Source of the DNA: Thermodesulfobacteriota bacterium
GTDB taxonomy: Bacteria > Desulfobacterota > BSN033 > UBA1163
NCBI GenBank assembly: GCA_049514515.1
Contig: JBEKUZ010000017.1
Location: forward strand, 1,006 to 65,005
Reading direction: 5' to 3'
DNA length: 64,000 bases
Under the pieces are notes generated by a model that worked only from the letters and a program-made list of their open reading frames with translations, was not told the origin of the DNA and did no database searches. The position numbers and the translations under genes were made by a program. This document shows positions 5,893 through 35,473 of the stretch, piece by piece (within the stretch, counting starts at the first letter, position 1; each line of letters starts with the position of its first letter).

Positions 5893-8160
5893 TCATCTTC
5901 TCACGAATCGATAGGTGAGTCCTGCTGAAATGAGTAAAGGGACCACGCCCAACAGAATGAAAACGGCATCCGCCGGCAAACGCATCCACTCGATCAGAGT
6001 GGTGATGCGAGCATTTAGAAACTCAGGACCTCTCGCATGCCAATATCCGTTCTTCAATACATCGAAGAACTGGAGCACGCCCCCAGGAAAGAGATTCAGA
6101 ACCACCATCCCCGCCAGGCCGATATTCAGCCCCCAGAAGGAGAGCCGAATATATTTCTCCACCCGTGCCCACTCTTCATCGGGCAATACCTGCCGAATGG
6201 CGAAAACCATGAAGGCAACAGCGAACATTCCGAACACGCCCATCATCGCAGCATGGCCGTGATTGGGGGTGAGTATCGTGCCCACCTCGAAATAGCTGAC
6301 AATAGGCAGGTTGATGAGAAACCCGAATATCCCAGCCCCGACAAAGTTCCAGAATCCCACCGCCATCATAAAATAGAAGGTCCATTTGTGAGGGATCGAG
6401 ATTTCTTTGCCGCAGATGTCGCATTTTCCCTCGGACAACTTTATAAAGTCCCAGGCATCCAGTGTCAGCAGTGTCAGGGGTACGACCTCCATGGCGGAAA
6501 AGGTGGCGGCAAAGGCCATCGTTACGTTTGACTGTCCCGTCCAATACCAGTGATGCGCCGTGCCGATGATGCCGCCCCCGAGGAAAAGAATCGCATCTAA
6601 GTAAATGACCCGGGTTGCTGTTATTCGGGTGACCATTCCGAGCTTGTAGAAGAGGACAGCCACCATCGTGGTGACAAAGAGTTCAAAGAAGCCTTCCACC
6701 CACAGATGGATAATCCAAAAACGCCAGTTGTCCACCACCGTGAAGTGGCTCGTACTGGTGAAGAACATGGCCGGTAGATAAAACAGAGGAATCGCAAGAG
6801 CCGCCAACAGGAAGAGGGTGGAAATCTCACGTTCTTCCGGTTTTTTTCTTGCGGGACTGCTCGCTCTGAATATCAAGACGAGCCAGATGATCAGGCCGAT
6901 CGCCAGCAAAATCTGCCAGGCACGACCCAGGTCAAGATATTCCCATCCCTGATGTCCAAACCAGAACCAGAGTTTTCCAAGGAGTTGATAGACGCCAAGC
7001 ATCTCGCCCAGCAGACTGCCGAAGACGACGATAACCAGTGCAACAAAGAGAAAATGGATCCATTTTGCCTGGCCTTTTGGTTCTCTGCCTCCCAATGAGG
7101 TGGCGAGAAACAACCCTCCTGCGATATAGCCGGTGGCTATCCAAAAGATGGCTAACTGTAAATGCCAGGTGCGAAAGACATTGCCTGGAAAGAATGAAGA
7201 TAGATCAATGCCATAGAAACTTCCCGGATCGGCGCGGTAGTGAGCCGTTGCGCCTCCGACGAGGACCTGGGCTAAAAATAGCAAGGCAACAACTACAAAA
7301 TACTTTATTGTCGCTTTCTGGCTTTCGGCGACCGCCCCGGGGATCATTTGAGGATGGATATGTTCGCCCCCACCTTTCCAGCCAAGAAAATTGAATCTGC
7401 CGAAGGAGAAAAGAACGATGGCTGTTCCGGCAAGGAGGGTAATAAGGCTCAAAGCACTCCAGAGAACCGCGTCACCGGTTGGTGTATTTCCGATCATGGG
7501 ATCGTAAGGGAAATTATTTGTGTAAGAAAATGATTTCCCAGGACGATTTGATGCGGAGGCCCATGCGGTCCAGGCAAAGAAAGCGGTCAGTTGCTGGAGC
7601 TCTTTTGGATCCTTGATATGGTTGATCAGCAAGCCTCGATTTAACAGGGGTTGTGCAAAGTATTCTGTCCACTTTCTTATTTGGTTTCCGTAAGACATTA
7701 CTTCAGGAAGGGTGAAGGTCAACGTTTTGGTCTGCTGGTCATAGCGATTCTGTTTCAGCAACTGCTGGACTTCTGCAGTGACGGCAGCTCGTTCAGTCAA
7801 TGTGAGGTCCTGCCACTCGAGATGATAAATCTGTTTTGCGAGGAGGGTACTCGTATCCACGGCAAGCGTGTGAAGATACTCGGCGGAAAAATCAGGCCCG
7901 AGATAGGCACCGTGCCCCCAGATGGTCCCATTCTCCATCAGTCCGTATTTCAGGAAGACTTGTTGGCCAGTCACGATATCGTTGTGGGTAAAGATCGTTT
8001 CCCCGGATGGACCCACAACATTTTCGGGAATGGGTGGGGCATCCTCATGCGCCCGGATGGCCATCCAGATCAACACGGAAAACCCTATGACTAAGACGAT
8101 GATAACAGACCTTCTCCACCAGGGGGACAGTTTTTGAGAAGGACCTTTTTTCTCTGCCAT
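5893..8160 (-). CDS. norZ: Nitric oxide reductase large subunit, quinol-dependent type (qNOR / NorZ)
   Basis: 755 aa. One N-terminal TM and a roughly 200-aa hydrophilic domain (GLMENGTIWGHGAYLGPDFSAEYLH), then a 12-TM heme-copper-oxidase core. The non-heme Fe ligands are canonical (HLWVEGFFE and GTAHHWYW). The heme b/b3 ligands are canonical (NHGHAAMMG). The M24 stop and the qNOR start are 22 nt apart. Confidence 0.8.
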   Translation of the reverse strand: MAEKKGPSQKLSPWWRRSVIIVLVIGFSVLIWMAIRAHEDAPPIPENVVGPSGETIFTHNDIVTGQQVFLKYGLMENGTIWGHGAYLGPDFSAEYLHTLAVDTSTLLAKQIYHLEWQDLTLTERAAVTAEVQQLLKQNRYDQQTKTLTFTLPEVMSYGNQIRKWTEYFAQPLLNRGLLINHIKDPKELQQLTAFFAWTAWASASNRPGKSFSYTNNFPYDPMIGNTPTGDAVLWSALSLITLLAGTAIVLFSFGRFNFLGWKGGGEHIHPQMIPGAVAESQKATIKYFVVVALLFLAQVLVGGATAHYRADPGSFYGIDLSSFFPGNVFRTWHLQLAIFWIATGYIAGGLFLATSLGGREPKGQAKWIHFLFVALVIVVFGSLLGEMLGVYQLLGKLWFWFGHQGWEYLDLGRAWQILLAIGLIIWLVLIFRASSPARKKPEEREISTLFLLAALAIPLFYLPAMFFTSTSHFTVVDNWRFWIIHLWVEGFFELFVTTMVAVLFYKLGMVTRITATRVIYLDAILFLGGGIIGTAHHWYWTGQSNVTMAFAATFSAMEVVPLTLLTLDAWDFIKLSEGKCDICGKEISIPHKWTFYFMMAVGFWNFVGAGIFGFLINLPIVSYFEVGTILTPNHGHAAMMGVFGMFAVAFMVFAIRQVLPDEEWARVEKYIRLSFWGLNIGLAGMVVLNLFPGGVLQFFDVLKNGYWHARGPEFLNARITTLIEWMRLPADAVFILLGVVPLLISAGLTYRFVRR

Positions 8161-17519: not shown

Positions 17520-17593
17520 GTCATTGCGAGGAGTCTCGCTTTGGCGGGACGACGTGACAATCCCCGAGATTGCTTCGCCTCGCTCGCAATGAC
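17520..17593. repeat. Palindromic REP-like element (gtcattgcgag...ctcgcaatgac)
   Basis: Perfect terminal inverted repeats. The same family recurs at 32523-32663, 60751-60781 and 61081-61232. Confidence 0.7.
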
Positions 17594-25960: not shown

Positions 25961-27754
25961 CTAAACATTCTCACCCTTGATGATGGCCTCGATTTGATTT
26001 CCGTCAAGAACCTCTTTTTCAAGAAGCGTATTTGCCAACGTATGGAGAGTGGTCATATTCGTCTGGACGATCTCTTTCGCCTTTTCATAGCCTTGGGCGA
26101 CGATGGTCCTTACTTCACCATCAATCAAACGTGCTGTCTCCTCACTATAGTCCCGGTGGCGGGCAAACTCTCTTCCCAAAAAGATCTCTTCTTCTTTCTT
26201 ACCAAAAGTCAGAGGGCCAAGCTTTTCGCTCATTCCCCACTCGCAGACCATTTTTCTGGCGATCTCCGTGGAGCGTTCGATGTCATTTCCCGCCCCGGTG
26301 GTTTGGCTGTTCAACACCAGTTCCTCCGCCACCCTCCCACCCATCATCACGGCGATGTTGTTCAGCAGATAGTCCCTGGGGTAGGTATGCTTTTCGTCTA
26401 TGGGGAGCTGTTGTGTGATTCCAAGAGCTCGGCCCCTGGGGATAATCGTGACTTTGTGAATGGGGTCTGTTCCCGGGATCATTCGTGCGACCAACGTATG
26501 ACCTGCCTCATGAAAAGCGGTAATTCTTCGCTCCTCCAGAGGGATGATCATTGATTTCCGTTCGACGCCCATCAGGACTTTATCTTTGGCCTGTTCAAAG
26601 TCGGCCATCTCGATGCGTTCTTTTCCTAACCGGGCGGCCAGCAGAGCCGCTTCGTTCACGAGGTTCTCCAGGTCGGCTCCGGTAAATCCAGGGGTTCCTC
26701 TGGACAGGACTGCGAGATTGACATCTGCCCCCAACAGGGTCTTGCCAGAGTGAACCTTCAGGATTTGCTCTCTTCCTTTGACATCGGGAAGGGGCACAAC
26801 CACCTGACGGTCAAAACGACCTGGCCTGAGTAGGGCAGGGTCTAAAACATCTGGCCGGTTTGTGGCTGCGATCAGGATGACCCCTTCGTTCGATTCGAAT
26901 CCGTCCATTTCAACCAACAGCTGATTTAAGGTCTGCTCTCGCTCATCGTGCCCCCCGCCCAGGCCGGCTCCTCGATGCCTTCCAACGGCGTCGATCTCGT
27001 CAATGAAAATGATGCAGGGGGCGTTCCGTTTTCCCTGAAGGAAGAGGTCTCGAACCCTGGAAGCTCCGACTCCCACGAACATCTCCACGAAATCAGAACC
27101 GCTGATGCTGAAAAAGGGAACGTCAGCTTCGCCTGCAATCGCTCGTGCGAGAAGCGTTTTCCCCGTTCCGGGGGCGCCGATGAGAAGAACTCCCTTAGGG
27201 ATCCTTCCGCCAAGCTTCGTAAACTTTTTGGGATCCCTGAGAAAATCGATGATCTCCTCAAGTTCACCTTTGGCTTCTTCAATTCCAGCGACATTCTCAA
27301 ATGTTACCTGATGGAGTTCTTTCGTCAGAACTTTCGCCTTACTCTTTCCAAAAGAGAGGGCCTTTCCACCGCCGATTTGCATCTGCCGAATGAAAAAGAG
27401 CAAAACGCCTACGAGAATAATCACCGGAAGCGATGTGATGAGAATACTCCAGAGAGAGAAGGACTCCTCTTCTTTCTTCACATTGATAACCACCCCTTTA
27501 TCTCGGAGAAGTTTAATCATCTCGGGGTCTTCAGGGGCATAAGTTTTGAAGCGTCTTCCTTCTTTATCCCTCCAAATAATGTTTCTACCGCGTATCTCCG
27601 CCTCCTGAACCCGATTGTTTTCCACGGTGGAGATGAAATCGGAATAATTTTTTTCTACCGCTGTTTGACGGGGTTTACTGAAAAGCTGGAAGAGAAGAAC
27701 CATCAGGATGACGATAATTGCCCAGAAGATCAGGTTCTTATAAAGAGAACTCAA
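25961..27754 (-). CDS. ftsH: ATP-dependent zinc metalloprotease FtsH
   Basis: AAA+ motifs ([14 protein letters not shown]), the HEAGH zinc motif, and N-terminal TM helices. Confidence 0.95.
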
Positions 27755-28049: not shown

Positions 28050-28739
28050 ATGGTGATTGAATCATTGAAACGGTGTCCTCTTTTTGCCGGGCTGAAAGAA
28101 GAAGACCTGAAAAAGATCAAGGCAGTTGCTTCGCTAAGGCGGGTCGGAAAGAAGCAGATTCTCTTTTCCGATGGGGAGGAGGCAAGGGGATTCTATGTGA
28201 TCCTTTCGGGAAAGGTGAAACTCTTCAAGATATCGCCGGAAGGCAAGGAGCAGATTCTTCATGTGGTGTCTCCGCCGGAGGCCTTTGCTGAGGCAGCTCT
28301 GTTTCTCGAAGGAAATTACCCAGCCTTTGCCGAGACCCTAACAGATAGCCAGCTTCTGTTTTTCCCCAAGAGGGATTTCATCCATCTCATCGAGCGGAAT
28401 CCCCAGCTTAGCATCAATATGATCGTCTCTCTTTCGCACTTTTTGAGAAAATTTGCTTCCCTCATCGAAGAGCTTTCCCTCAAAGAGGTTTCATCGCGAG
28501 TTGCAAAATATCTGATCGATCTCTCTTTGAAATCAGCAAAAGAGGGAAGGAACCCCAGAGAGGTCGATTTGGATTTAAGCAAAAGCCAATTGGCTTCAAA
28601 GCTGGGGACAATTAGTGAGACCCTTTCAAGGAGCCTGGCAAAGATGAAAGCCAAAAAGATTATCGAGGTGAAGAAGAACAGGATTCTCATCTTGAATCGA
28701 GAAGCCTTAGAAGCGGTGGCCTCAGGTTTGAAAATATAA
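28050..28739 (+). CDS. Crp/Fnr-family transcriptional regulator of the DNR/NnrR-like class, with no N-terminal Cys cluster
   Basis: cNMP-binding-like beta-roll plus a C-terminal HTH whose recognition helix carries the E--SR motif (SETLSRSLAK) typical of regulators that bind TTGAT-N4-ATCAA-type boxes. Only one N-terminal Cys, so not an FNR-type [4Fe-4S] sensor. An AT-rich promoter region lies upstream. Confidence 0.75.
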   Translation: MVIESLKRCPLFAGLKEEDLKKIKAVASLRRVGKKQILFSDGEEARGFYVILSGKVKLFKISPEGKEQILHVVSPPEAFAEAALFLEGNYPAFAETLTDSQLLFFPKRDFIHLIERNPQLSINMIVSLSHFLRKFASLIEELSLKEVSSRVAKYLIDLSLKSAKEGRNPREVDLDLSKSQLASKLGTISETLSRSLAKMKAKKIIEVKKNRILILNREALEAVASGLKI

Positions 28740-31100: not shown

Positions 31101-32450
31101 TTGGAGGAAGTTACGAGACTTTCCGCTTTCGTTAAGAGGGAAGATATAAAATCCTTCATGTCACGCAGCTGGTCTGTGAGCTGGCCGCTGACGGTGATCA
31201 TGTTTTTTGAGTTCTTGATGGGCCTGACGGATGTTTACATTGCCGGCAAGGTGAGCAAAGAGATCCAGGCGACGTACGGTTTTGTCATTCAGCTCTATTT
31301 TGTTCTTATCGTGATTGCCAATGCCCTTACGGTGGGCACTGTCTCAGTCGTATCGAGGTTGTTCGCGTCACGAAATCAAAATGACTTAACTCAAGCGATT
31401 TTTTCCTCCCTCACGGCGACTGCCGGTGCAGGAATCGTCCTCGTCGCAGGGGGTTTCTTCTTTAGCCCTGAAATCATCCATTTTGTAAACATCCCGGAGG
31501 AGCTCAAATATCTTGCGGTCCCTTTCATCAAAATTTATTCGGTTGGTTTATTCTTCCACTACCTTCTCATCAACTCCAACGGGGTTTTGAGGTCTTGTGA
31601 CAGGGTGAAAGAGTCTTTGAAAACCCAGGCCCTTGTCTGTGCGCTCAACATCGGTCTCAATTTCTTTTTTGTGTTTTATACGCCTCTGGGATACAGGGGA
31701 ATTGCAACGGCCACCGCTTCAAGTGTCTTGATTGGTAGCCTGGTCAACCTATGGAAGGTGAGAAGTTTGATGACTGGGGAGAGGACATTTTCCGTCGGTA
31801 CCGTGCGAAAGATGATGACCATAGGCTGGCCGATTGGAATGCTTCAGGTGCTGTGGCAGCTCTCTTCCATGGTTCTTTTCCTGATCTTGAGCGCATTGCC
31901 CGAACGCCGGGTTGAAATTCTCGCTGCCCTGACGACCGGCCTGAGGATCGAATCGGTCATCTACCTTCCGGTCTTCGGGTTCAACATGGCCAATGCGGTG
32001 ATCGTCGGAAATCTGCTGGGCGAGAAGAGAAAAGAAGATGCCTTGCGAAGCGGATTCATCACCGCTGCGATTGGCGTGGTGGTTGTCACAATCATAGTCA
32101 TCGCGGTCATCTTGAATGCTCGATGGATCGCCTCGTTCCTGTCACATAATGAGATTGTGGTCAGGGAGAGCATGAAATATATTTATATCAGCATGATCAG
32201 CGAGCCATTTATGGCCTGGGGCATTATCCTCGGTGGAGGCCTGAACGGAGCGGGGGATACGCGAAGCGTCCTGATACGGGTTGCCCTGAGTGTATGGCTT
32301 GTAAGGATTCCTTTGAGCTATATCTTTGTCGTCTTCTTTGGGTTCGGACCGGCCTCGGTCTGGTGGTCGATGAATATCTCTCAATTCGTCCAGGCATTTC
32401 TAATGTCCAAAAGATATTTCGATAGAAAGTGGCTGTCCCTGGAAAAATAG
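31101..32450 (+). CDS. MATE-family multidrug efflux transporter
   Basis: 12-TM protein with the MATE repeat architecture. An alternative start lies at 31158. Confidence 0.7.
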   Translation: MEEVTRLSAFVKREDIKSFMSRSWSVSWPLTVIMFFEFLMGLTDVYIAGKVSKEIQATYGFVIQLYFVLIVIANALTVGTVSVVSRLFASRNQNDLTQAIFSSLTATAGAGIVLVAGGFFFSPEIIHFVNIPEELKYLAVPFIKIYSVGLFFHYLLINSNGVLRSCDRVKESLKTQALVCALNIGLNFFFVFYTPLGYRGIATATASSVLIGSLVNLWKVRSLMTGERTFSVGTVRKMMTIGWPIGMLQVLWQLSSMVLFLILSALPERRVEILAALTTGLRIESVIYLPVFGFNMANAVIVGNLLGEKRKEDALRSGFITAAIGVVVVTIIVIAVILNARWIASFLSHNEIVVRESMKYIYISMISEPFMAWGIILGGGLNGAGDTRSVLIRVALSVWLVRIPLSYIFVVFFGFGPASVWWSMNISQFVQAFLMSKRYFDRKWLSLEK

Positions 32451-32490
32451 GAAGTCAGAGGCCGTCCGTATTTTTGTAATCTTTAACCCA

Positions 32491-32710
32491 TTGCGTGCAA
32501 CCCAAATCCCAATTTAGGAAATGGTCATTGCGAGCGAAACGAAGCAATCTCTTCTTTTGCAATGAGATTGCCACGCCTGCGTACCGAAACTATTACTTAC
32601 CAAATGCCTTTGACGGGCCACTTCGGCGTGCAGGCACGCACCTTTTAGGTGCTCGCAATGACTGGATATCGAAGGGGTCTTATTCTTTAAATGGGAATTT
32701 GGGTGCAACA
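32491..32710. repeat. Composite ~220-bp palindromic element with imperfect outer inverted repeats, nested around a gtcattgcgag-family core
   Basis: Outer arms: tgcaacccaaatcccaattt / aaatgggaatttgggtgcaac. Inner arms: gtcattgcgagcg / gctcgcaatgac. Confidence 0.6.
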
Positions 32711-32716
32711 TCTGTG

Positions 32717-32730
32717 TTGACTTAGGTCAA
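32717..32730 (+). promoter_or_regulatory. FNR/DNR-type box TTGAC-N4-GTCAA centred 29.5 nt upstream of a TATAAT hexamer (32753-32758), upstream of the YgbA-like gene
   Basis: Perfect palindrome TTGACTTAGGTCAA. The spacing to the -10 element matches class II (-41.5) FNR/DNR-dependent promoters. Confidence 0.6.
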
Positions 32731-32768
32731 GGCACTTATTTTATTCTGGAATTATAATTAAATAATAG

Positions 32769-33158
32769 ATGGTGATGAAGGAAAGAGGAATGAGATTTAA
32801 AAAAGAAGGGACACCCAAAACGGAAAAAGATGATGTTCGGACTTTGATCAAGTTTGTGGGGATCTACTGTAGAAAGAATCATGATGGAGATAAGTCTCCT
32901 TTTTTATTCAAACTTTTCGATATCAAAGAGATCGAAAAGAGGGAGATCTCGCTATGCCCGGATTGCACACGACTTCTCACCTATGGCCTGACGATGAGGC
33001 TGAAGTGCCCCCATGATCCTAAACCCATGTGCAAGAAATGTGAGACTCAATGTTACCATGGTGAATATAAATCGAAGATCCGGGAAGTGATGAAGTTCTC
33101 CGGGATGTACCTGGTGAAGCACGGTCGGGTGGATGCGCTCTACCATTATCTCCGGTGA
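32769..33158 (+). CDS. ygbA: YgbA-like (nitrous-oxide-stimulated promoter family) Cys-rich protein
   Basis: Pattern IYCRKNH...CPDCTRLLTYGLTMRLKCPHDPKPMCKKCETQCYHGEYKSKIREVMKFSG matches the YgbA family (C..C..L..Y...R...CP......K..C..C..HCY....REKIR.VM..SG). The more likely start is the ATG at 32790, which is preceded by AGGAAAGAGG. Confidence 0.65.
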   Translation: MVMKERGMRFKKEGTPKTEKDDVRTLIKFVGIYCRKNHDGDKSPFLFKLFDIKEIEKREISLCPDCTRLLTYGLTMRLKCPHDPKPMCKKCETQCYHGEYKSKIREVMKFSGMYLVKHGRVDALYHYLR

Positions 33159-33237
33159 AATTCAGAAGGCGGAAAGCACAAGGCAAGAGGCAGTGATTAA
33201 TCTGCATTCTCCTTTCAGCCTACTGCTTTCTGGGGTC

Positions 33238-33251
33238 TTGATCTAAGTCAA
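33238..33251 (+). promoter_or_regulatory. FNR/DNR-type box TTGAT-N4-GTCAA centred 29.5 nt upstream of a TAAATT -10-like hexamer (33274-33279), upstream of the zinc-ribbon ORF
   Basis: TTGATCTAAGTCAA with the same geometry as the box at 32717. An AAGGAG Shine-Dalgarno and the ATG at 33301 follow. Confidence 0.55.
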
Positions 33252-33300
33252 AACACTTTTAGGGAAGGGATGTTAAATTTAAACTAAAGGAGACAAACGA

Positions 33301-33438
33301 ATGGCTGAGAAAAAGGAAATCGCCTGTTTCCTCTGTCACAAAACGGAACACGAGGGAGTTTTGATTCCTTGCCGGAAGGGTGGGCAAGATCTTTGGGTAT
33401 GTACCCGATGTTTACCCATGCTGATCCATGGTGGGTAA
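33301..33438 (+). CDS. Unannotated 45-aa C4 zinc-ribbon protein (ClpX-type zinc-finger-like)
   Basis: Not in the supplied ORF track (under 60 aa). MAEKKEIACFLCHKTEHEGVLIPCRKGGQDLWVCTRCLPMLIHGG has the CxxC...CxxC pattern resembling the ClpX N-terminal zinc finger (CSFCGK...VYICDECV). A strong AAGGAG SD lies 8 nt upstream. Confidence 0.55.
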   Translation: MAEKKEIACFLCHKTEHEGVLIPCRKGGQDLWVCTRCLPMLIHGG

Positions 33439-33508
33439 AACAGATAATCCCCTCAGTTCCTATTTTAGTTAAGGGGGATGAATGGGAATTTGTTAAGGAG
33501 GCACTGGA

Positions 33509-33916
33509 ATGGATAAATATGCAAAGGCATTTGTCAAATCGAGCCTGATCTATCTCGGAATTGGGACCATTATGGGAGTATGTATGGTTTTGTCTCCGGA
33601 TATTCGATTTACCCTCACGCAAGTTCATGTCCATATTCTTCTTCTGGGATTTATGGCGATGATGATTTACGGCGTAGGATATCATATTCTTCCCCGGTTT
33701 ATGGGGAGACCGGTTTACAGCCATCGTCTTGGTAATATTCAGGTATGGCTTGCTAATATTACGCTCATAGGTCTTTCCATTTCGTGGATTACAGAGGCCT
33801 CGCAAGGCGGAGTCTGGCACCTCTCAGCGATTTTATTCGGAATCGGTCAGGGGGTTGCGATTTTTTTGTTTATTTTCAATCTGTGGAAGAGCATGGTTCC
33901 TCAAACCACGGAATAG
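33509..33916 (+). CDS. Small 4-TM membrane protein with conserved His residues; function unknown
   Basis: Four predicted TM helices and an AAGGAGG SD. His-containing motifs are VHVHILLLGF and YGVGYHILPRF. Preferred over the antisense ORF 33284-33820. Confidence 0.55.
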   Translation: MDKYAKAFVKSSLIYLGIGTIMGVCMVLSPDIRFTLTQVHVHILLLGFMAMMIYGVGYHILPRFMGRPVYSHRLGNIQVWLANITLIGLSISWITEASQGGVWHLSAILFGIGQGVAIFLFIFNLWKSMVPQTTE

Positions 33917-34003
33917 TTCGGAGTTTAAAGCTTTGAGTTCGGAGTAAATCGATTAAATCTCCGCACTACAAACTAATTAATCCGAACCGAAAAGGAGTGT
34001 AGA

Positions 34004-34207
34004 ATGGCTGAGAAAAGGTTTCATAAGGATATGGTTATTGGAGATGTTTTGAAGGCGAACCCTGCAGCGATCAAGGTGATCGAAAAATATTTTGGGCAGG
34101 GCTGCTTCACTTGCCCTGGGATGAAGATGGAATCCATCTCTTTTGGAGCGATGATGCACAACATGGATCCAGAAGCAATTATTAAAGAGCTGAATGAGTT
34201 GGAATGA
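34004..34207 (+). CDS. DUF1858-domain protein (hybrid-cluster-protein-associated redox disulfide domain)
   Basis: 67 aa with a GCFTCPG motif and the DUF1858 pattern (IGDVLKANPAAIKVIEKYFGQGCFTCPG..SISFGAMMHNMDPEAIIKELNE). GGAG SD. Confidence 0.7.
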   Translation: MAEKRFHKDMVIGDVLKANPAAIKVIEKYFGQGCFTCPGMKMESISFGAMMHNMDPEAIIKELNELE

Positions 34208-34551
34208 GTGGTATGATGGAGCCTATTCATCTTTTTGAAAAAGCAGAGTTCTCTAAAGAGAACTTTATACCCAAGCAACTCCATATCGGGGATGCAGGAG
34301 CGGCAGTGCTCATCTGCTTTGAACCCGGCCAGTCCATGCCTCTTCACCCTCATCCGGGGGCTTTAGAAGTGATCCTCTATGGGGTTGAAGGGGAGGGGAC
34401 TTTGATGATCGGGGATGAGGAGAAACCCTTTAAGAAAGGAGACCTTATGTTTTGTAAGGGGGAGGTTCCCATCGGCCCCAAGAACACGGGTCAAGGAAGG
34501 TTCATGGTTCTGGTCATTCTTGTCTTAAAGCAGTTGGTTTCCAAAGGGTAA
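34204..34551 (+). CDS. Cupin-domain protein
   Basis: Cupin motifs (PGQSMPLHPHPGALEVILYGVEGEG ... GDLMFCKGEVP). The ATG overlaps the stop codon of the DUF1858 gene. Confidence 0.65.
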   Translation: MSGMMEPIHLFEKAEFSKENFIPKQLHIGDAGAAVLICFEPGQSMPLHPHPGALEVILYGVEGEGTLMIGDEEKPFKKGDLMFCKGEVPIGPKNTGQGRFMVLVILVLKQLVSKG

Positions 34552-35473
34552 GCTTTTTATAAAGGAGACCGTATCTCACCCCGTGGCAACTGATTAAGGC
34601 AGAGGGAGAGTTCAGTTCCTCCATCGCCAGATAAAGAATCGCTCCTCCAGCCAAGATCACATCCGCCCTGGCCGCGGGAAGACCGGGTATCTTCTTTCTC
34701 TCTTCGATCGTTCTGGATCGGTAGAGGAGAAGCTGGTTTTTCAGGCCCTCCCTTCTTAACACGAAATGATGGATCTTTTGAGGGATGAATTCCTCCAAAC
34801 CCTGTTCAACAGAGGCTAAGGTCGTCGCCGTCCCTCCCACAGCGACCATTGACGACGGCTCCTGTGAATGCGGGATTTTGGCAAGTAGCTCTCGGATTCT
34901 GTTCTCCATCGTATTCCACTCTTCCTCTTGAACAGGATCGGAGTGAAGATACTGTTCTGTGAAGCGGACCGAACCGAGTGGAAGGCTTATCCACTGATTG
35001 ATCTGATTGCCTCTCCCCAGGATGAACTCCGTACTTCCCCCACCTACATCGACCACAAGGATAGGTTCGTTTACCTCCATGAGATCCTTTGACACAGCCA
35101 AGTAAGAGAGTCGGGCCTCTTCTTCTCCGGAGATGACCTCAATGGAGAGATTCAGTTTTTCCTTAATCAGTCTTAAGAATTCTGCGGAATTTTTGGCTTC
35201 TCTGAGAGCGTTCGTCCCGACGGCAAAGATGTTTTGGACCTTCATCGCCCGGCATCGTTCCCAATATTGTGACAGAGTTTCAATGCCCCTATTCATTGCC
35301 TCTTTTGCAAGAATTCCACTCTTTTGGACACCCTCACCCAATCGGGCCACCGTCTCCGTCTCAAAAAGCGGCTTTATCTTCTCCCCTTCTACTTCGGCAA
35401 TGAGGAGTAGAATTGTGTTCGTCCCAATGTCAATGGAGGCCAACCTTTTACGCGAAGTAGGGCTGAATTTCAC
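34514..35473 (-). CDS. ppx: Ppx/GppA-family phosphatase (exopolyphosphatase / guanosine pentaphosphate phosphohydrolase)
   Basis: ASIDIGTNTILLLIAE and the ASKHA-fold motifs (DVGGGSTEF). Confidence 0.75.
   Translation of the reverse strand: MKFSPTSRKRLASIDIGTNTILLLIAEVEGEKIKPLFETETVARLGEGVQKSGILAKEAMNRGIETLSQYWERCRAMKVQNIFAVGTNALREAKNSAEFLRLIKEKLNLSIEVISGEEEARLSYLAVSKDLMEVNEPILVVDVGGGSTEFILGRGNQINQWISLPLGSVRFTEQYLHSDPVQEEEWNTMENRIRELLAKIPHSQEPSSMVAVGGTATTLASVEQGLEEFIPQKIHHFVLRREGLKNQLLLYRSRTIEERKKIPGLPAARADVILAGGAILYLAMEELNSPSALISCHGVRYGLLYKKLTLWKPTALRQE

Follow-up and report, generated by a model that had tools for sequence, protein, structure and literature searches.

The locus examined here raises the question of what a very small zinc-ribbon protein and a short membrane protein, encoded next to each other downstream of a putative nitric oxide (NO)-responsive promoter, are, and what they might do. 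It lies in a stretch of 64,000 nucleotides of contig JBEKUZ010000017.1 (assembly GCA_049514515.1) from a Thermodesulfobacteriota bacterium, hereafter the window, and consists of two open reading frames (ORFs) of 45 and 135 amino acids (aa), designated ORF45 and ORF135 (Table 1). An earlier note, made from the sequence of the window, had described them as an unannotated ClpX-type zinc ribbon and a His-rich membrane protein forming a pair of an undescribed kind. We found that ORF135 fits best, as a protein of one repeat, into the superfamily comprising subunit I of the heme-copper oxidases (HCO) and NnrS, without counting as a member of either 12-helix family as such, and that both genes belong to a wider module, which on sequence evidence may serve the response to NO.

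A single-repeat relative of oxidase subunit I and NnrS

ORF135 is a real, conserved protein-coding gene, with homologues in more than 1000 clusters at 90% identity (668 representatives at 50% identity) and relatives in at least 595 species genomes, most commonly metagenome-assembled genomes (MAGs) of anaerobic Thermodesulfobacteriota and Nitrospirota. Partial matches to the protein were obtained with Pfam COX1 (PF00115, E 5.6e-8) and NCBIfam ccoN (E 5e-7), and COX1 matched each of 51 one-repeat representatives at E<=0.01, the best at 1e-14. A phmmer search of PDB sequences matched ORF135 to CcoN, subunit I of the cbb3 oxidase (3mk7_A), at E 3.3e-9, and the three CcoN stretches concerned (residues 56-110, 213-247 and 309-411) fall one in each pseudo-repeat of the 12-helix subunit. 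In these alignments H40 and H42 of ORF135 stand opposite CcoN H345 and H347, H40 aligns also with H60, and H42 would fall opposite H207 if the ungapped middle alignment is extrapolated. In 3MK7 we take H345 to be the ligand of heme b3, H60 and H347 those of heme b, and H207 that of CuB, so that the single HxH of ORF135 covers metal-ligand positions of the equivalent helices 2, 6 and 10.

Consistent with these matches, the AlphaFold2 model of ORF135, made from an alignment of the 51 one-repeat representatives (28-81% identity), has the four-helix pseudo-repeat fold of HCO subunit I. It consists of helices at residues 3-28, 30-65, 72-99 and 101-129, with a mean predicted local distance difference test (pLDDT) of 96.4, in agreement with the four helices that had been proposed for this 135-aa protein. 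In Foldseek comparisons with subunit I of the cbb3, ba3, aa3 and bo3 oxidases and of the NO reductase cNOR the TM-score was 0.76-0.83 (query-normalised), and the next fold class, the V-ATPase c subunits, reached a TM-score of ~0.4. All of the 51 representatives have H40, G47, P62 and F121; H42, Y58, R63 and N124 occur in 90% of them or more, and H59 in ~88-90%, whereas conservation does not extend to H72 and H104. The family thus has three conserved histidines, H40, H42 and H59, in line with the number given in the earlier note. To judge from the distribution of charges, both termini would be cytoplasmic, and the HxH would therefore lie near the outer membrane face, as in the oxidases.

The relatives of ORF135 include proteins with more than one repeat. 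Its 150 best representatives comprise 121 proteins with one repeat, about five with two and 18 with three, and several of the three-repeat proteins retain HxH...G...Y[HQ]..P in each repeat. Some three-repeat relatives pass the Pfam NnrS model and carry a C-terminal DUF1858 domain, one of them with ScdA_N in addition; two of the three-repeat proteins (P0221 and P0225) score 53-57 bits for NnrS against a cut-off of 28, and ORF135 matches the NnrS-passing three-repeat relatives at E ~1e-17. Fusion to DUF1858 is found in 18 of the 150 representatives, 15 being one-repeat proteins with one or two DUF1858 domains and the motif GCF[TSD]CPGQ. Weak matches to NnrS and to DUF2871 (PF11070), an uncharacterised family of small membrane proteins, were seen in 2/51 and 3/51 one-repeat relatives, respectively; ORF135 itself does not match DUF2871, whose members may be small relatives forming a sister group. 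What had been taken for an anonymous His-rich membrane protein is accordingly a single-repeat homologue of HCO subunit I and NnrS. In one locus (L090, 481-2487) a 413-aa three-repeat relative with HxH in every repeat is preceded by a gene for a PDZ_3 protein and directly followed by an SCO1/SenC copper-chaperone gene, which hints that three-repeat forms bind copper.

NnrS (PF05940), which carries both heme and copper, is a membrane protein of ~370 aa with 12 transmembrane (TM) helices, belongs to NO-responsive regulons (R. sphaeroides, V. cholerae) and contributes to NO tolerance. ORF135 resembles it in being a membrane protein in a probable NO-stress context with a putative NO-type regulator and in having its conserved His on the equivalent helix, but it comprises one four-helix unit instead of 12 helices, and its DUF1858 and zinc-finger partners are separate proteins. 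With subunit I of the HCOs and NO reductases (PF00115; CcoN, NorB, CoxA) ORF135 shares the fold of one pseudo-repeat and the placing of H40 and H42 at ligand positions. It lacks, however, the twelve-helix core with six ligand histidines (helices 2, 6, 7, 7, 10 and 10), being one-third of the size and having one HxH pair, which matches helix 10, and no counterpart to the copper-binding HH pair of helix 7, and it occurs mainly in anaerobes. No gene for a subunit II or III or a cytochrome c partner was recognised among the genes neighbouring ORF135. In JGI the 135-aa homologues bear the name 'cbb3-type cytochrome oxidase subunit 1', one being called 'DMT-like permease'.

The zinc-finger protein and its resemblance to ClpX

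ORF45 is also a real, conserved protein-coding gene, with the strong Shine-Dalgarno (SD) sequence and the CxxC...CxxC arrangement (C9xxC12 and C34xxC37) that had been read from the DNA. Its close homologues (n=26) are 45-51 aa long, and a profile made once diverged copies from other phyla were found retrieved 437 clusters, with lengths of 42-52 aa except where gene calls are over-extended, to 84 aa at most. These clusters are nearly all unnamed or 'hypothetical', and none contains a Pfam domain. The family, hereafter ZnR, has the signature CxxC-x11-C-x9-CxRCLPxLIHG, in which C9, C12, C34, R36, C37, L38, P39, L41, I42, H43 and G44 are invariant and C24 is nearly so. When the window was compared with 16 distinct orthologous DNA sequences, the differences at codon positions 1, 2 and 3 numbered 82, 18 and 265, and the codon changes were 224 synonymous versus 84 non-synonymous. 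Because third-position and synonymous differences dominate, ORF45 bears a clear coding signature of purifying selection, so that the conservation which the earlier note had put forward as a check on the small ORF is borne out. The description of the gene as unannotated holds solely for the ORF track of the earlier reader, since public gene callers (JGI, NCBI, ENA, Logan) already call it.

The ORF135 gene follows directly downstream in the same orientation, as had been observed, with 70 nt from the ORF45 stop to the ORF135 start and a second SD in the gap, and no terminator-like site was found between the two genes. The 178-aa ORF on the antisense strand, which the earlier note rightly distrusted, is spurious, a by-product of the sense genes: the longest antisense ORF at 87 homologous loci has a median length of 83 aa and is broken down to 32-58 aa in several close relatives.

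The label 'ClpX-type' could be upheld only in part. The AlphaFold2 model of ORF45 (pLDDT 88) shows a β-hairpin and then, at the C-terminus, a short helix, and its top PDB match in Foldseek is the ClpX zinc-binding domain 2ds5_A (prob 0.93, E 0.27, TM 0.58/0.61). With hhalign, ORF45 aligned to residues 1-60 of E. coli ClpX at 62% probability and with both CxxC knuckles in register. On the other side, the Pfam model of this domain, zf-C4_ClpX (PF06689), gave no match to ORF45 at E<=1, and 2/30 of the ORF45 relatives matched it at E 0.05, far under the cut-off; neither a significant match nor a ClpX entry came up when PDB sequences were searched with ORF45 as a single sequence or as a profile (in the latter case at E<=10). 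None of the Pfam and NCBIfam models reached its threshold with ORF45, and the sub-threshold matches were mostly to RING-like models. ORF45 has the CxxC...CxxC spacing of the ClpX domain (PF06689; PDB 2DS5), and the hairpin-plus-helix of its model may be a treble clef of the same kind. It differs in being a free-standing small protein with no AAA+ body, whereas the ClpX domain forms the N-terminus of an AAA+ unfoldase, and in its additional nearly invariant C24, its R36 and its LPxLIHG(A/G)H tail, which are absent from ClpX. The resemblance is therefore real but weak, and does not establish ORF45 as a member of the ClpX family. It may be speculated that the fifth Cys and the tail His make a second or shared metal site.

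The operon, its relatives in other genomes and its regulation

The features of the region are collected in Table 1.

Table 1. Genes, ribosome-binding sites and putative regulatory elements discussed in the text, with positions in the window
Feature	Position	Strand	Remarks
Crp/Fnr-family regulator, DNR-like	28050-28739	+	NCBIfam/Pfam Crp/Fnr; helix-turn-helix 'ISETLSRSL' (E--SR motif)
FNR/DNR-type palindrome upstream of ygbA	32717-32730	+	TTGACTTAGGTCAA; kept in 16/16 distinct window-type loci
ygbA-family gene (NO-stimulated-promoter protein)	32769-33158	+	Pfam PF11756 E 2.6e-15; NCBIfam NF007714 94.6 bits vs cut-off 88
FNR/DNR-type palindrome, putative promoter box of the ORF45 operon	33238-33251	+	TTGATCTAAGTCAA; fixed distance in 13/15 distinct orthologous loci
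Antisense 178-aa ORF, judged spurious	33284-33820	-	no family match
Shine-Dalgarno of ORF45	33287-33292	+	AAGGAG, 8 nt 5' of ATG
ORF45, 45-aa zinc-finger protein (ZnR)	33301-33438	+	ATG start; product MAEKKEIACFLCHKTEHEGVLIPCRKGGQDLWVCTRCLPMLIHGG; C9xxC12-x11-C24-x9-C34xRC37LPxLIH43GG
Shine-Dalgarno of ORF135	33495-33501	+	AAGGAGG, 5' of ORF135
ORF135, 135-aa four-helix membrane protein	33509-33916	+	single HCO subunit I / NnrS repeat; H40-x-H42 and Y58-H59-x2-P62-R63-F64 motifs
DUF1858 / 'hybrid-cluster-protein-associated redox disulfide' protein	34004-34207	+	GCFTCPG motif; PF08984 E 1.6e-13; TIGR03980 59.6 bits vs cut-off 44.95
Cupin_2 protein, final gene of the operon	34204-34551	+	PF07883 E 2.2e-13; start overlaps DUF1858 stop by 4 nt

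The neighbourhood was surveyed in the six-frame ORFs of 88 loci, which were searched with the window proteins and the ZnR profile, and three arrangements were found. The window type (i), of Thermodesulfobacteriota, has the order YgbA, ZnR, optionally NifU, four-TM protein, DUF1858 and cupin; type (ii) has Crp/Fnr, four-TM protein, DUF1858, DUF364/DUF4213, cupin and ZnR; and type (iii), of Nitrospirota, has a DUF1858-ZnR pair divergent from the four-TM gene and a convergent Crp/Fnr gene. The cupin gene is syntenic in the window-type and type (ii) loci. The NifU-domain gene, of 72 aa, lies between the zinc-finger and four-TM genes at 6201-6419 of locus L003 and likewise in L004-L006, and the DUF364/DUF4213 gene ('putative heavy-metal chelation') lies between DUF1858 and cupin in type (ii) loci, at 4205-5074 of L027 and 5676-6527 of L057.

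Co-occurrence was counted in 54 genome loci whose flanks measure 2 kb or more on both sides. ZnR and a stand-alone DUF1858 gene are each present in 36 of the 54, and these are the identical 36, neither gene ever being found alone; a Crp/Fnr gene is present in 37, a cupin gene in 16 and ygbA in 11. Nitrospirota loci have 0-3 nt between the stop of DUF1858 and the start of ZnR, or else an overlap of the longest ZnR frame with the DUF1858 gene. In other genomes DUF1858 is fused to the four-TM unit or to NnrS-like 12-TM proteins, whereas for ZnR only gene-call extensions, and no fusion to DUF1858 or to the four-TM protein, were seen among 392 retrieved proteins. ZnR is thus tied most tightly to DUF1858, its companion in all 36 loci, and fusion in turn links DUF1858 to the membrane unit. 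The two-gene pair proposed earlier as the functional unit has to be given up, as ZnR tracks DUF1858 (36/36) more strictly than it tracks the four-TM gene; the unit is a module made of a DNR-like regulator, the four-TM protein, DUF1858 and the zinc finger, to which cupin, YgbA, NifU and DUF364 may be added. Judged from their families (YgbA_NO, DUF1858/ScdA_N, NifU, DUF364 and cupin), the neighbours appear to share the theme of NO and iron centres.

With RIC/ScdA/YtfE, the DUF1858 'redox disulfide' proteins and Thermus DrpB the operon shares the GCFTCPG motif of DUF1858 and a link to nitrogen oxides, and both DUF1858 and ScdA_N are found fused to ORF135 relatives. It differs from them in that neither a hemerythrin-like di-iron domain nor a DUF2249 domain was found in the genes scanned, and in that the DUF1858 protein is paired with a membrane unit and a zinc finger.

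Both palindromes listed in Table 1 are of the FNR/DNR type. A loose search of the window for TTGAT-N4-ATCAA with one mismatch gave five sites against 4.5 expected, which is not above chance, whereas the refined consensus TTGAY-N4-RTCAA occurs three times against 0.41 expected, and 0/100 shuffles reached three. The third exact match, TTGATTTCCGTCAA (25994-26007, - strand), lies inside the 3' end of an ftsH-like gene and may be a chance occurrence or a site serving the downstream gene. In type (ii) loci the motif TTGACCTA[AG][AG]TCAA is found 12-78 nt before the start of the four-TM gene in 6/6, the distance being 74-78 nt in five. Boxes are thus kept in three differing arrangements of the genes. 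Candidate -10 elements are a perfect TATAAT (32753-32758) for ygbA and TAAATT (33274-33279) for ORF45, and with these both boxes would be centred at about -41.5, the class II layout of the FNR family; a sigma-70 promoter scan gave nothing useful on the + strand. In eight Nitrospirota loci, some from magnetotactic bacteria (L038, L043, L047, L052, L058, L066, L078 and L084), ATGAT-N4-ATCAT takes the place of TTGAY-N4-RTCAA upstream of the four-TM gene, suggesting a shifted half-site specificity of their Crp/Fnr regulator.

The Crp/Fnr-family protein of the window has a single Cys and therefore lacks the Fe-S cysteine cluster of FNR. Of the solved structures, P. aeruginosa DNR comes nearest to it (3dkw, E 8.9e-30), FNR being matched at ~1e-19, and 'DNR-type' seems a fair description of it. 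The Crp/Fnr gene is syntenic with the four-TM gene in all three arrangements. The earlier assignment of a DNR-type box to ORF45 is strengthened by the conservation of TTGATCTAAGTCAA in orthologous loci and by this syntenic regulator, which most likely reads both boxes.

The ygbA gene probably starts at ATG 32790 instead of ATG 32769, because the predicted promoter, with TATAAT at 32753-32758, would leave no leader to 32769; ATG 32790 is preceded by GGAAAGAGGA, and the called ygbA homologues are 121-122 aa long. The spacer between a MATE gene and ygbA (32489-32704) contains nested inverted repeats, for instance GTCATTGCGAGC ... GCTCGCAATGAC, the core of which, CATTGCGAGCGAAACGAAGCAATC, recurs on the - strand at 17568-17591. 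This repeat looks like a repetitive extragenic palindrome (REP) or miniature inverted-repeat transposable element (MITE), and gives rise to the spurious ORFs listed at 32455-32725. No Rfam family was detected in 32300-34700.

Proposed function and evolutionary meaning

Starting from the reality of the genes, their homology, fold, conserved residues, synteny, fusions and conserved boxes, we lean, by a narrow balance of judgement, towards regarding the region as a DNR-controlled operon for NO or nitrosative stress that encodes a zinc finger, an NnrS-like four-TM protein, DUF1858 and a cupin. The ygbA gene would precede this operon with a promoter of its own, and the DNR-like activator would read both boxes upon induction by NO. 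ORF135 would self-associate, in the simplest case into a trimer in which the 12-helix architecture is restored, and its H40 and H42 would hold heme b between the subunits, close to the outer membrane face. On the cytoplasmic side the CxxC protein DUF1858 would dock on ORF135, with ORF45 in turn bound to DUF1858. The assembly would then act like NnrS in NO tolerance, most plausibly by passing electrons between the membrane and the thiol-metal module formed by DUF1858 and the zinc finger, or by trapping NO for this module, which would protect or repair iron centres.

Several observations weigh against this proposal. The COX1 score of ORF135, 32.5 bits, is under the gathering cut-off of 34.8, and Pfam NnrS (PF05940) gives no match to it. 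The four-TM gene is found with neither ZnR nor DUF1858 nearby in 18 of the 54 loci, and these partners are therefore not obligatory for it. A stand-alone two-repeat (8-TM) relative on one short contig does not fit the simple idea that three repeats make one unit, and no one-repeat gene that could complete it (2+1=3) lies beside it on this single short contig available. Most Nitrospirota loci have no TTGAY-N4-RTCAA at >=8/10 matches, so that regulation may differ there. Finally, Thermus DrpB, the only DUF1858 protein that has been studied, acts in regulation and not in repair (PMC6282519).

This last point leads to the main rival, which we consider unlikely, namely that the membrane heme protein is a sensor of NO or redox state that modulates the DNR-like regulator through DUF1858 and the zinc finger. 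The Crp/Fnr gene lies next to the four-TM gene in 37 of the 54 loci and in each of the three arrangements, and the ClpX zinc-binding domain-like fold is a protein-protein interaction module. DrpB, moreover, binds the membrane and controls denitrification promoters (PMC6282519), and the tuning of DnrS/DnrT by DrpA/DrpB in Thermus would provide a parallel. In the window, however, the regulator gene is 4.5 kb away, with unrelated metabolic genes between; the accessory genes for YgbA, NifU, DUF364 and cupin resemble effectors, as NnrS-type proteins are in NO tolerance; and DrpB has DUF2249 domains that are absent here.

It appears decidedly less probable that ORF135 is no autonomous hemoprotein but an assembly factor, a heme/copper chaperone or a surrogate subunit for a full-length HCO or NO reductase encoded elsewhere. 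Such a role would suit a protein that matches one third of subunit I in its fold and in the places of the metal ligands, and one three-repeat relative is followed by the SCO1/SenC gene mentioned above. Nevertheless, L080 is the only locus where any of six marker searches pointed to a 12-TM relative less than 5 kb from the single-repeat gene, the flanks not being Pfam-scanned for oxidase or NO reductase genes, the family is commonest in MAGs of anaerobes, and its fusion partners are DUF1858 and ScdA_N instead of oxidase subunits.

That ORF135 is what decay has left of a cbb3 oxidase gene, as the JGI name of its homologues implies, ORF45 a chance ORF, as its want of a Pfam or NCBIfam family might suggest, and the antisense ORF the real gene, can hardly be credited and was rejected on the conservation data, given the full-length 135-aa homologues with conserved motifs in at least 595 species genomes, the compact and high-confidence model, the coding signature and 437 homologous clusters of ORF45, and an antisense frame that is broken in close relatives.

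An NO-regulated membrane hemoprotein of the NnrS/HCO-like type with DUF1858/ScdA-type partners is a known kind of system, and what is new here is the one-repeat form with its dedicated zinc finger. The judgement that such a system had not been described has to be narrowed accordingly: NnrS-type membrane heme proteins under NO control have been described, and a one-repeat form with a zinc-finger partner was not found described in the literature searched. One-repeat oxidase-like proteins, a relationship between NnrS and the HCOs, and the ORF45 zinc-finger family met with no description in the incomplete literature searched, which is an absence of evidence only.

More tentatively, and with doubt prevailing, it may be supposed that ORF135 and its relatives are living single-repeat 'proto-oxidases', that is, the unit that existed before triplication, in which a homo-oligomer, most simply a trimer, rebuilds the 12-helix heme core, with ZnR and DUF1858 as a so far undescribed pair of cytoplasmic partners. 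If so, the core of the HCOs and NO reductases would be a fused and diverged triplication of one four-helix unit; the H-x-H pair would sit exactly where the ligands of heme b, heme b3/a3 and CuB arose on helices 2, 6 and 10; and the one-, two- and three-repeat forms that retain HxH in each repeat would be intermediates. The origin of the HCOs and NO reductases, and with it the priority of NO or of O2 chemistry, is an old question that has been argued almost wholly from phylogenies of the 12-helix subunit. The ORF135 family offers another handle on it, being widespread and easily expressed, consisting of one pseudo-repeat with the presumably ancestral His pair, and occurring in probably NO-responsive operons of anaerobes, and since natural two- and three-repeat relatives exist, the triplication hypothesis could become testable at the bench.

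Beyond this question, the analysis defines a zinc-finger family of 42-52 residues for which there was no model and gives DUF1858 two concrete candidate partners. It also corrects the common mis-annotation as 'cbb3-type cytochrome oxidase subunit 1', which can inflate the aerobic capacity inferred for the MAGs of anaerobes.

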